Positions 38,924 to 62,314 are shown, counted from the stretch's first letter. The stretch: 64,000 nucleotides of DNA from Escherichia coli (GCF_011045215.1 NZ_CP049201.1); one strand, 5' to 3'. Numbers and translations: made by a program. Notes: generated from the sequence alone by a model not told the origin.

Positions 38924-40228
38924 TTACTTTTGCTTTAACGCCGCATACACCTGATCAACTACCCAACCATACGTTGCAATCGGCAGCTGACCGCTTTCGA
39001 ACATATTGGGATTCTTTTGCGGATCGGCAACCGGCGAATGTGGCTTGTTGCTTAACATCACAATCGCCATATGATTCACCGGATCGATAACGGTCACCGT
39101 TCCGGTCCAGCCAGTGTGACCGTAGGTTTGCGGGCTTGCCAGCGTGCCAAACGTCGGCGTCATGGTGGCATTACCATTCACGCGCCAGCCGAGGCCAAAA
39201 GTGGCATCTTCCTTAGAGCTGGTGGTGAACATCTTCACCGTTTCCGCACTGAACAGCTGCACATCGCCATAGCCCCCGCCGTTCAGCATCGTTTGCATTA
39301 ACACCGCAATATCGCCGGTATTGGAAAACAAACCTGCGTGCCCGGAAACGCCGCCCATCGAATAAAAGGCTTTTTCATCGTGCACCTGACCCCAGAGAGT
39401 GGAGGTGCGGATATTCGGGAAGTGGATCACGCCATCGCGGGTATTGCCGTTCAATTCCGTGGCGGCAATTTGCTGCGGTTTAAAGCCTTTCAGCAGCGGG
39501 TTAAATACCGTATGTGTCAGGCCGAGCGGGCGATAAATCGACTCTTCAACATAGCGGTCAAGCGGCTGACCGGTGACCGACTCGACGATAAATCCAAGCA
39601 GCATATAATCGACATCACTGTAAATATGCTTGCTGCCGGGCTGATACTCCAGCGGCGTGCGCTTGATCATCTCCAGCGTCTGGCCTTTATCCTGGGAATA
39701 TAACGCGCCCGCGACCGCTTTATTCGGATATTGTGGGTCCGCCGGGAAACCGCCGCTGTGATGCAGCAGGTCAGAAATCCGCAGCGTGTTTTTGCCTTTG
39801 ATGGTGTCATTTGGACTATCGGCAAATCCCGGAATATATTTCGCAATCCGATTGTCAGGATGCAGCTTACCTTCGCTCATCAGCTTTTGCAGAGCAAAGT
39901 TAGTGGCGTACATCTTGGTATTGGAAGCCAGGTCATACAGCGTCCCGGTGGTGGCTTTGACAGGCTGTTCCATCAATACGCTGCCATCGTACTTTTTCGC
40001 CGCTCCCCAGGCTTTGCGATACACAATCTGATTATCTTTTATAATCAGCAGGTTTACGCCGGGATAACCGGCGTCCACTTGCTGGCTAATCCAGCGATCC
40101 ATCTGGTTAAGCCGTTCGACGTTGAACCCTGCTTTCTCTGGCGAACTTTCTGTCAGAACAGGGTATTTTGCGGCGCTGACGCTACAACTAACAGCCAGCA
40201 GAGAAAGATAGAGCATTGTCCGTTTCAT
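38924..40228 (-). CDS. yfeW: Penicillin-binding protein 4B-like serine beta-lactamase-fold protein
   Basis: 434-aa product from ATG at 40228 (MKRTMLYLSLLAVSCSVSA signal); beta-lactamase/PBP fold. Confidence 0.8.
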   Translation of the reverse strand: MKRTMLYLSLLAVSCSVSAAKYPVLTESSPEKAGFNVERLNQMDRWISQQVDAGYPGVNLLIIKDNQIVYRKAWGAAKKYDGSVLMEQPVKATTGTLYDLASNTKMYATNFALQKLMSEGKLHPDNRIAKYIPGFADSPNDTIKGKNTLRISDLLHHSGGFPADPQYPNKAVAGALYSQDKGQTLEMIKRTPLEYQPGSKHIYSDVDYMLLGFIVESVTGQPLDRYVEESIYRPLGLTHTVFNPLLKGFKPQQIAATELNGNTRDGVIHFPNIRTSTLWGQVHDEKAFYSMGGVSGHAGLFSNTGDIAVLMQTMLNGGGYGDVQLFSAETVKMFTTSSKEDATFGLGWRVNGNATMTPTFGTLASPQTYGHTGWTGTVTVIDPVNHMAIVMLSNKPHSPVADPQKNPNMFESGQLPIATYGWVVDQVYAALKQK

Positions 40229-40232
40229 GATA

Positions 40233-41657
<1,425 letters not shown>

Positions 41658-60380: not shown

Positions 60381-61307
60381 ATGAATTATTCTTTAAAACA
60401 ATTAAAGGTTTTCGTCACAGTAGCGCAGGAGAAAAGTTTTAGTCGTGCAGGAGAGCGTATCGGCCTGAGCCAGTCGGCAGTAAGTCACAGTGTGAAGGAG
60501 CTGGAAAATCATACTGGTGTTCGCCTGCTGGACAGAACCACGCGTGAAGTGGTGCTTACAGATGCAGGGCAGCAGTTGGCTTTGCGTCTTGAGCGACTGC
60601 TGGATGAACTTAACAGCACGTTGCGCGATACCGGGCGTATGGGGCAACAACTGAGCGGAAAAGTTCGGGTCGCTGCCAGCCAGACCATTTCCGCGCATCT
60701 TATTCCGCAATGCATTGCTGAAAGCCATCGCCGCTATCCAGATATTCAGTTTGTCCTGCACGATCGTCCGCAGCAGTGGGTGATGGAAAGTATTCGCCAG
60801 GGAGATGTCGACTTTGGCATCGTCATCGATCCAGGCCCAGTGGGCGATCTGCAATGTGAAGCGATTCTTTCCGAGCCTTTCTTTCTGCTTTGCCATCGTG
60901 ATAGCGCTTTGGCCGTGGAAGATTATGTACCCTGGCAGGCATTACAGGGAGCGAAATTGGTGTTGCAGGATTACGCGTCAGGCAGCCGACCGCTGATTGA
61001 CGCAGCGCTGGCGCGCAATGGTATTCAGGCGAATATTGTGCAGGAGATTGGACATCCGGCGACGCTGTTCCCGATGGTAGCCGCAGGCATCGGCATCAGT
61101 ATTCTTCCCGCACTGGCGCTACCATTGCCTGAAGGTAGCCCACTGGTGGTAAAGCGCATTACGCCGGTTGTTGAACGCCAGTTGATGCTGGTGCGCAGGA
61201 AGAACCGTTCACTTTCCACCGCCGCTGAAGCGTTATGGGACGTGGTACGAGACCAGGGCAATGCGCTAATGGCTGGTCGGGAAGGGGATCCGTTGTATCA
61301 GATATAG
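60381..61307 (+). CDS. yfeR: LysR-family transcriptional regulator
   Basis: 308-aa ORF with N-terminal LysR HTH ([38 protein letters not shown]) and substrate-binding domain. Confidence 0.8.
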
Positions 61308-61639
61308 ATATCGATATGAGTCGTATTTTCAACAGGATTTAGAAGGGATACATTCAGAGACAAACGCTGCTCTTTCTCCTGCGCCTTTTCTGCCTGCTGT
61401 CTCTGCAACTGCGCCAGTTGTGTTTCCAGTAGGGTGATTTGCTGTTGAATCAATTCGGCCTGTTTTTGTTTGTCTTCAGCACTGCCGCCAGTGTCTACAA
61501 TCTCTTTAATTTGTTGAGTGAGTTTGATGATTTGCTGACTTATCCGCGCGATTTGTGAAGCAACATCGCTACCTTGTGATGCCCTGTTACTACTCTGTGT
61601 TTGTATGGAAGGAATTGAAGTTGAAGAGATAGTGGCCAT
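61298..61639 (-). CDS. FlxA-like coiled-coil protein (113 aa)
   Basis: Ser/Gln-rich N-terminus followed by Q/L-rich coiled coil ([25 protein letters not shown]), resembling FlxA-family proteins; overlaps yfeR stop by 10 nt; family call is from memory. Confidence 0.45.
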
Positions 61640-61715
61640 TGTTCAGTCCTCGTCACTGTACGAGGTAATATCGGTAGAAGAACAAGGAACTTGAGAAGAA
61701 AAATCAATCTTACAG

Positions 61716-61775
61716 ATCGCAGATAGCAAAAAAGCGCCTTTAGGGCGCTTTTTTACATTGGTGGGTCGTGCAGGA
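61716..61775. repeat. Duplicated copy of the lysV 3-prime end plus its terminator (60-bp direct repeat; second copy at 61872-61931 is the native one)
   Basis: atcgcagatagcaaaaaagcgcctttagggcgcttttttacattggtgggtcgtgcagga occurs twice 156 bp apart; the last 17 nt are the tRNA-Lys acceptor/T-arm end. Confidence 0.75.
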
Positions 61776-61914
61776 TGACTCGCTTCGCTCGCCCTTCGGG
61801 CCGTCGCCGCGAGCGGCTCCGTTGTTTCGCTACGCTCAACTCAAACCTGCTGCAGGTTCGAATCTTTGAGTATCGCAGATAGCAAAAAAGCGCCTTTAGG
61901 GCGCTTTTTTACAT

Positions 61915-61990
61915 TGGTGGGTCGTGCAGGATTCGAACCTGCGACCAATTGATTAAAAGTCAACTGCTCTACCAACTGAGCTAACGACCC
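61915..61990 (-). tRNA. lysV: tRNA-Lys (anticodon UUU)
   Basis: Reverse complement gives GGGTCGTTAGCTCAGTTGGTAGAGCAGTTGACTTTTAATCAATTGGTCGCAGGTTCGAATCCTGCACGACCCACCA, 76 nt with CCA; last gene of val-val-val-lys tRNA operon. Confidence 0.9.
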
Positions 61991-61994
61991 GAAG

Positions 61995-62070
61995 TGGTGG
62001 GTGATGACGGGATCGAACCGCCGACCCCCTCCTTGTAAGGGAGGTGCTCTCCCAGCTGAGCTAATCACCC
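61995..62070 (-). tRNA. valY: tRNA-Val (anticodon UAC)
   Basis: Reverse complement gives GGGTGATTAGCTCAGCTGGGAGAGCACCTCCCTTACAAGGAGGGGGTCGGCGGTTCGATCCCGTCATCACCCACCA; third of three identical copies in transcription order. Confidence 0.85.
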
Positions 62071-62116
62071 ACTTCGGTATTTCACATTTTTACAAGAAAT
62101 TTAGCTGGTGAGAAAG

Positions 62117-62192
62117 TGGTGGGTGATGACGGGATCGAACCGCCGACCCCCTCCTTGTAAGGGAGGTGCTCTCCCAGCTGAGCTAATCACCC
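62117..62192 (-). tRNA. valX: tRNA-Val (anticodon UAC)
   Basis: Identical 76-nt tRNA-Val sequence; middle copy. Confidence 0.85.
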
Positions 62193-62238
62193 ACTTCGGT
62201 ATTTCACATTTTTACAAGAAATTTAGCTGGTGAGAAAG

Positions 62239-62314
62239 TGGTGGGTGATGACGGGATCGAACCGCCGACCCCCTCCTTGTAAGGGAGGTGCTCTCCCAGC
62301 TGAGCTAATCACCC
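62239..62314 (-). tRNA. valU: tRNA-Val (anticodon UAC)
   Basis: Identical 76-nt tRNA-Val sequence; promoter-proximal copy, divergent from gltX. Confidence 0.85.

Follow-up and report, generated by a model that had tools for sequence, protein, structure and literature searches.

The closest described relative of the gene analyzed here is flxA of Escherichia coli K-12 (b1566), which is carried by the Qin prophage. The flxA gene has been known since 1997 as strongly dependent on FliA but has no known role, and as a rule it has been written off as cargo of a prophage. It is expressed late, when the hook-basal body is finished and FlgM has left the cell. Upon deletion of fliA, K-12 flxA expression fell from 280 to 2, and the gene has a chromatin immunoprecipitation sequencing (ChIP-seq) peak (PMC4183435); in another study, flxA was down 28-fold in a fliA deletion (PMC1935009). 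Here, a FlxA-like gene was examined in a 64,000-nucleotide stretch of E. coli DNA (GCF_011045215.1 NZ_CP049201.1; this whole stretch is called the window below), where it lies at positions 61298 to 61639, between yfeR and the tRNA gene lysV. We consider it likely that this is a chromosomal FlxA-family gene in an old tRNA-yfeR position, driven by sigma-28, and that the Qin flxA is its paralog; that it encodes an accessory flagellar protein is a more tentative proposal. Three aspects are new: synteny that is conserved, a sigma-28 promoter found throughout the family, and a two-allele replacement polymorphism in which the flxA-like gene alternates with the xap genes. FlxA is thereby recast as a conserved yet dispensable part of the flagellar regulon. 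The features on which this account depends are as follows (nt, nucleotides; strand relative to the window).

61298-61639, minus strand: FlxA-like coding sequence, 113 amino acids (open reading frame [ORF] call, Pfam PF14282, RefSeq annotation, AlphaFold2 model, and ratio of nonsynonymous to synonymous substitution rates [dN/dS]).
61647-61651, minus strand: Shine-Dalgarno sequence GAGGA, 7 nt 5' of the ATG (read from the sequence).
61667-61694, minus strand: predicted sigma-28 (FliA) class-3 promoter, consisting of TCAAGTTC (61694-61687), an 11-nt spacer, and ACCGATAT (61675-61668) (position weight matrix [PWM]).
61309-61715, strand not applicable: haplotype-specific segment of 407 bp, containing the gene and promoter only, which replaces a 4.4-kb yfeN-xapA-xapB-DUF1427-xapR block (breakpoint alignments).

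A chromosomal gene of the FlxA family

A first-pass annotation, made from the window's sequence, had pointed out a 113-residue ORF resembling FlxA, and this resemblance was borne out. The ORF starts with ATG, and its product (12.5 kDa; isoelectric point [pI], 5.3) matched Pfam PF14282 (FlxA) over residues 15 to 92 with 51.8 bits, compared with a gathering score of 26.3 (E = 9.2e-14). BLASTP aligned the product to K-12 FlxA with 43% identity over 74 amino acids (E = 2e-12), and in an alignment of the family the two proteins could be aligned end to end, including the C-terminal IDIY(I/V). In other strains the identical locus bears the RefSeq name "FlxA-like family protein," which is already right and leaves the annotation unaffected. 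The ORF at positions 61298 to 61639 is thus a true FlxA-family (PF14282) gene of the chromosome, an uncharacterized, already annotated member of a known family. Its stop was also said to overlap that of yfeR; the two ORFs do overlap by 10 nt (61298-61307), but their stop codons have no base in common, with TCA (the complement of TGA) at 61298-61300 for the FlxA-like gene and TAG at 61305-61307 for yfeR. The FlxA-like gene is the one ORF of the interval between yfeR and the tRNA cluster.

Beyond membership in PF14282, the FlxA-like product shares with K-12 FlxA its length (113 versus 110 amino acids), a disordered N terminus, two helices, and the C-terminal IDIY(I/V), and both genes have a sigma-28 promoter 22 to 27 nt 5' of the ATG. 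The two differ in that flxA is prophage borne in K-12, whereas the FlxA-like gene is chromosomal and syntenic across genera, and in that the FlxA-like product has a degenerate form of the "GVNxP"-type linker of the chromosomal subgroup. The family is small. An exhaustive search of 1.8 billion representatives returned 73 clusters (50% identity, E ≤ 1e-3), and a word-indexed protein search with the FlxA-like product gave only 8 matches; an NCBIfam scan of the product gave only subthreshold coiled-coil noise. Named members are nearly all from the Enterobacteriaceae and Erwiniaceae (Enterobacter, Cedecea, Yokenella, Superficieibacter, Pantoea, and Erwinia), with the addition of Azonexus.

Conserved position and selection

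Synteny was scanned with exact peptide patterns in one genome per bacterial species. Nine loci were returned, from Pseudocitrobacter (two loci), Kluyvera (six), and Pluralibacter. Where the contig reaches far enough, the neighbors are yfeR, yfeH, and ligA on one side and val/lys tRNAs and gltX on the other, and the conserved order is gltX-val/lys tRNAs-flxA-like-yfeR-yfeH-ypeB-ligA. More distant members, with 33 to 52% identity, occupy the same position in Enterobacter roggenkampii, E. hormaechei, Pantoea, and Erwinia/Pantoea, usually overlapping the end of yfeR. The position of the flxA-like gene between the tRNA operon and yfeR is therefore old and conserved in the Enterobacteriaceae and Erwiniaceae. 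The gene is also under purifying selection, with dN/dS values of 0.17 relative to Pseudocitrobacter faecalis and 0.16 relative to Kluyvera cryocrescens.

A predicted sigma-28 promoter and the leader

To score sigma-28 sites, a PWM was derived from 25 FliA ChIP-seq sites with a fold-above-threshold (FAT) value of >4 (Fitzgerald et al. 2014; PMC4183435, Table 2). The predicted promoter of the FlxA-like gene scored 16.5 bits and ranked second among the 127,946 window positions, within the range of the validated sites (8.6 to 29.5 bits); when flxA was left out of PWM training, the score was 15.5 bits. The motif ends 27 nt 5' of the ATG and lies directly past the distal copy of the terminator described below. 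No sigma-70-like promoter was found in positions 60900 to 62000.

The site is conserved with the gene. In 17 of 18 related loci, the top sigma-28 score of the whole locus fell 22 to 37 nt 5' of the ATG. All nine orthologs from the synteny scan had their best score on either strand 27 to 30 nt 5' of the ATG, in surroundings that have diverged, and eight of nine further loci, scored with the PWM free of flxA, behaved likewise, including K-12 flxA (21.8 bits) and the member from the betaproteobacterium Azonexus (21.4 bits), which sits in an unrelated gene context. The exception, Erwinia/Pantoea, has a recognizable sigma-28 site with a 12-nt spacer. The FlxA family thus has a chromosomal, syntenic lineage, and its sigma-28 promoter is conserved even in the betaproteobacterial member. 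From this conserved site, together with the strong FliA dependence of K-12 flxA, we infer that the FlxA-like gene belongs to class 3, the late genes, of the flagellar regulon. It would be transcribed alone, from the sigma-28 promoter just past the lysV/RtT terminator, and its expression would be late only, after the hook-basal body has been completed and FlgM has been exported.

Between the promoter and the start codon lies a further element.

61648-61665, minus strand: leader inverted repeat CCTCGT-N6-ACGAGG, whose 3' arm overlaps the Shine-Dalgarno sequence (RNA fold).

The leader hairpin folds at -8.6 kcal/mol (z = -1.4), and folds across the loci are weak (-3 to -8.6 kcal/mol). Analogous arms of different sequence occur in other genera (in Kluyvera, CCTTAT/ATAAGG with a longer loop), and those of Kluyvera look compensatory. 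The arms would pair the Shine-Dalgarno region with an anti-Shine-Dalgarno sequence 5' of it, and it is possible that the repeat acts as a translational hairpin; its 5' arm may precede the transcription start.

Two side observations concern sigma-28 sites. The -10 element of O157:H7 strain EDL933, GCCGATAT, is nearer to consensus than that of the window. The highest PWM score for sigma-28 anywhere in the window, 18.6 bits (GAAATATATTCCGGGATTTGCCGATAGT; 39815-39842, minus strand), falls inside and sense to an ORF of 463 amino acids of the beta-lactamase family (38924-40315, minus strand); the site is similar to the FliA sites that have been reported in large numbers within genes of K-12.

Two alternative states of the lysV-yfeR junction

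The order of genes in K-12 strain MG1655 is lysV-xapR-xapB-xapA-yfeN-yfeR, just as the first-pass annotation had stated, and alignment of the locus to K-12 confirmed that gene content differs, with yfeN-xapA-xapB-xapR in place of the FlxA-like gene. The breakpoints are sharp: identity extends to position 61308, which is the yfeR stop plus one base, and resumes at ATCGCAGATAGC (about position 61716), the start of the terminator copy. The yfeN-xapA-xapB-xapR cassette, which serves xanthosine utilization, therefore fills exactly the same interval, from 1 nt past the yfeR stop to the lysV terminator/RtT, but it is unrelated in content and larger, at 4.4 kb versus 407 bp; it is an alternative allele and not a relative.

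Haplotypes were counted in a set of 5,426 complete genomes of E. coli. Of these, 1,316 (∼24%) had the 407-bp flxA-like segment, always on the chromosome, at a median of one place per genome and at most two; the arrangement is thus not confined to the strain of the window. The 4.4-kb xap/yfeN block was present in 4,099 genomes (∼76%), and the two states jointly covered 5,415. The lysV-yfeR junction in E. coli thus has two alternative states, flxA-like or xap. Carriers of the flxA-like segment include EDL933 and other O157:H7 strains, O145:H28, HS, and ATCC 8739, which belong to different phylogroups; K-12, of the same phylogroup as HS, is a xap strain. Recombination within E. coli must therefore be moving the two states about. 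In K-12, the chromosomal flxA-like lineage is missing because the xap genes took its place, and HS, ATCC 8739, and O157:H7 are accordingly better strains than K-12 for study of this gene.

The xap state is itself old. The Citrobacter freundii locus reads yfeR-xapA-xapB-xapR-tRNAs-gltX, without yfeN and without a flxA-like gene, and this shorter form means that the xap state also predates E. coli. Within E. coli the xap/yfeN block is deeply split, with ≥99% identity in 2,354 genomes and 90 to 95% in 1,473; this split exceeds the usual divergence of E. coli core genes and suggests more than one import. An apparent intermediate haplotype in E. coli HH97, with scrambled and repeated fragments of flxA-like and xapB and long poly-A, was set aside as probably an assembly artifact or a mixed sample.

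The tail of the tRNA operon

The flanks of the FlxA-like gene contain the following features.

60381-61307, plus strand: yfeR, LysR-family regulator, convergent with the FlxA-like gene, 10-nt 3' overlap (ORF; annotation of matching genomes).
61915-61990, minus strand: lysV, tRNA-Lys(UUU), last gene of the valU-valX-valY-lysV operon (ARAGORN; Rfam tRNA, 79.2 bits).
61759-61884, minus strand: RtT RNA element (Rfam RF00391; annotation of other genomes by the Prokaryotic Genome Annotation Pipeline [PGAP]).
61716-61776: distal copy of a 61-nt direct repeat comprising the lysV 3' end, terminator hairpin, and T-run (repeat search).
61872-61932: proximal copy of the 61-nt direct repeat, overlapping the true lysV 3' end (repeat search; tRNA coordinates).

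The valU-valX-valY-lysV cluster as a whole spans 61915-62314 on the minus strand. The duplication of a tRNA end reported in the first-pass annotation is real: the two repeat copies are 100% identical and 156 nt apart, each consists of the final 18 nt of lysV followed by the terminator, and the distal copy supplies the terminator directly 5' of the sigma-28 promoter. The reading of this duplication as a "lysV scar" did not hold, since it is an RtT element that is found in K-12 too and is absent from EDL933. RtT RNA was first described 3' of tyrT. The element here reached 47.1 bits against the RF00391 gathering score of 45 and covered model positions 1 to 130 of 130; like RtT, it is a repeat unit that bears a copy of a tRNA 3' end, and it differs in following lysV rather than tyrT and in being a single extra unit. 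PGAP labels it "RtT sRNA" (small RNA) in strain L725 and in one K-12-type genome, in which the element, base for base identical, adjoins xapR. EDL933 has a clean 156-bp indel in place of RtT and yet carries the FlxA-like gene. RtT after lysV is thus a 156-bp presence/absence polymorphism (present in the window, L725, and the K-12-type genome and absent from EDL933), and because it is present in a K-12-type genome and absent from a flxA-like carrier, it is a polymorphism of the tRNA operon tail that is independent of the flxA-like/xap polymorphism.

Protein architecture

An alignment of 31 family members showed a variable, Ser/Thr/Gly-rich N terminus, a conserved core (Q-I-x-K-L-T-Q-Q-L-K ... 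K-Q-x-E-L-I-Q-x-Q-I-x-M-L-Q-A-Q-L-A-Q-L-Q-x-x-Q-A-E), and a variable polar linker followed by a near-invariant C terminus, [IVL]-[DN]-[IV]-Y-[IV]. In the AlphaFold2 model of the FlxA-like protein (mean predicted local distance difference test score [pLDDT], 67.8), residues 24 to 49 and 54 to 100 form helices and the ends are disordered; the disordered N terminus, residues 1 to 22, is rich in Ser, Thr, and Gln. The protein is thus predicted to be a two-helix antiparallel coiled-coil hairpin with a conserved C-terminal IDIYI. A search of PDB sequences with the family profile retrieved only designed coiled coils and compositional matches and no solved relative. A literature search found no paper that uses the term "FlxA-like" and none that assigns a function.

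Weighing of alternative explanations

Several observations run counter to our reading of an old resident gene, driven by sigma-28, for an accessory flagellar protein. The GC content of the FlxA-like gene is 43% (41% at third codon positions), versus 54% for yfeR and 52% for the window; only the Pseudocitrobacter orthologs (45 to 46%) share this low value, and because orthologs in Kluyvera, Pluralibacter, Enterobacter, and Pantoea have 50 to 54%, amino acid composition alone is not the cause. The rate of synonymous substitution (dS) between E. coli and Pseudocitrobacter is as low as 0.11 for the flxA-like gene in one genome and 0.57 in P. faecalis, and it is xapABR that stands at the Citrobacter locus. 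With 16.5 bits, the promoter falls in the lower third of the validated FliA sites, and its -10 element ACCGATAT starts with A, not with G as in EDL933. Qin-type flxA is present in 1,200 of the 5,426 genomes (22%), and a share of E. coli genomes of no less than 54% appears to be without any FlxA-family gene detectable by megablast; since most genomes have neither gene, any function of the FlxA-like gene is dispensable. A Foldseek search of the PDB with the model gave nothing at E ≤ 0.001, the top match being the hairpin of the FliJ-like protein CdsO (E = 0.22). Finally, the published hints of export are circumstantial. The E. coli exoproteome in which FlxA was raised along with FlgK, FliD, FliC, FlgL, FlgM, and FlgE also contained cytoplasmic proteins such as CheY and isocitrate lyase (PMC6391000), and the other hint is a report that FlxA protein and mRNA change in opposite ways at 42°C, a temperature that impairs secretion of FlgM (PMC6551532).

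These observations bear differently on the other possible origins of the gene. That it is a chance, unexpressed ORF deserves next to no credence: the window holds many spurious ORFs of like length, and the few substitutions within E. coli yield a dN/dS near 1, but the match to FlxA is above the Pfam threshold, the frame is intact and of constant length across genera with dN/dS at 0.16 to 0.17, and the Shine-Dalgarno sequence and promoter are conserved. Descent from a phage or integrative element that entered at lysV, with the duplicated tRNA end as the scar of its attachment site, is very improbable, although the founding member of the family lies within the Qin prophage, the GC content of the gene is 9 points below that of its surroundings, its distribution in E. 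coli is patchy, and a tRNA gene with a duplicated 3' end adjoins it. The duplication does not bracket the 407-bp segment, since both copies lie on the tRNA side, between the FlxA-like gene and lysV, and it is RtT, which sits beside xapR in K-12 and is missing from gene-bearing EDL933. No integrase or other phage gene was found nearby, the specific segment being only 407 bp, and the gene is flanked by yfeR and tRNAs in a syntenic position kept in at least six other genera. A tblastn search of 50,697 phage genomes with the FlxA-like protein gave no match, whereas K-12 FlxA, as a control, matched one sequenced phage; against PHROG 11044, which represents Qin-type FlxA, the FlxA-like protein scored 34.9 bits and K-12 FlxA 238 bits. 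Of the first-pass annotation, the assignment to the FlxA family therefore stands, as does the difference from K-12, and the reading as a phage-derived remnant is not supported. The polarity is therefore most likely the reverse, with the chromosomal gene as the old resident and the Qin flxA as a mobile, captured paralog. A weightier alternative, which we regard as a real possibility while not favoring it, is that the flxA-like gene of E. coli is a later reimport, brought by homologous recombination from a Pseudocitrobacter-like donor into a xap-bearing lineage. Between E. coli and Pseudocitrobacter, dS is 1.05 to 1.17 for ligA and 1.23 to 1.29 for yfeH but 0.72 to 0.74 for yfeR (2.2 to 3.3 for yfeR relative to Kluyvera, Citrobacter, or Enterobacter), and these values, together with the low dS of the flxA-like gene itself, are a sign that the lineages of Escherichia and Pseudocitrobacter have exchanged the yfeR/flxA-like tract. 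The Citrobacter xapABR locus and the low-GC form of the gene (43 to 46%), which is common to E. coli and Pseudocitrobacter only, also fit a reimport. However, either direction of exchange is possible, as the dS data give none; yfeR is the same allele (99% nucleotide identity) in both E. coli haplotypes; and the E. coli flxA-like alleles are up to 3.4% apart and hence not very recent in the species. Retention and reimport would give the locus different pasts, but either would leave the FlxA-like gene what it is.

As for function, the FlxA-like protein would be an accessory, dispensable protein of the late flagellar regulon rather than a structural or motor component, and it would interact with type III export through the flagellum. 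We offer tentatively that the export apparatus secretes it late, as a substrate, or at least handles it as a client, because of its predicted late-class promoter, its predicted disordered N terminus, the coenrichment of K-12 FlxA in the exoproteome, and the discordance of FlxA protein and mRNA at 42°C. In this it would be analogous to FlgM and late filament-type substrates: it is small, its promoter is predicted to depend on FliA, its N terminus is predicted to be disordered, and K-12 FlxA is enriched outside cells alongside FlgM, FlgK, FlgL, FliD, and FliC. The likeness would lie in how it works, as it has no sequence similarity to these substrates and is not a member of their family. The main rival, possible without being probable, is an unexported cytoplasmic coiled-coil adaptor or regulator of late flagellar function (binding, for example, the export gate or the ATPase stalk as FliJ does, a chaperone, or another class-3 product). 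The predicted antiparallel hairpin agrees with such a role, as does the best, nonsignificant structural match, CdsO being a FliJ-type stalk protein at the export gate, and the exoproteome data are contaminated by cytoplasmic proteins. The FlxA-like protein is moreover small, helical, and of pI 5.3, and flagellar chaperones are similar to it in size and charge. Against an adaptor, a Foldseek E value of 0.22 is weightless for a generic hairpin, pI values across the FlxA family range from 4.4 to 9.9, unlike those of the uniformly acidic chaperones, and the long disordered N terminus and coenrichment with late substrates suit an export substrate better. A broader form of the export reading, which seems rather unlikely to us, holds that the FlxA family as a whole is an unrecognized and widely conserved late cargo of flagellar type III export in the Enterobacterales and some Betaproteobacteria, expressed from sigma-28 promoters and passing through the completed hook-basal body by way of the disordered N terminus; the coiled coil and the conserved I-D-I-Y-I end would then serve FlxA proteins at the filament or beyond the cell, and the copy in Qin and similar prophages would be a cargo gene that they had picked up.

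Sequence differences were also seen in the O157:H7 allele of the locus. In the FlxA-like protein of EDL933, the conserved Asp of IDIYI at the C terminus is replaced by Gly (IGIYI), and the adjacent yfeR of this strain, interrupted by an internal stop, carries a pseudogene annotation.

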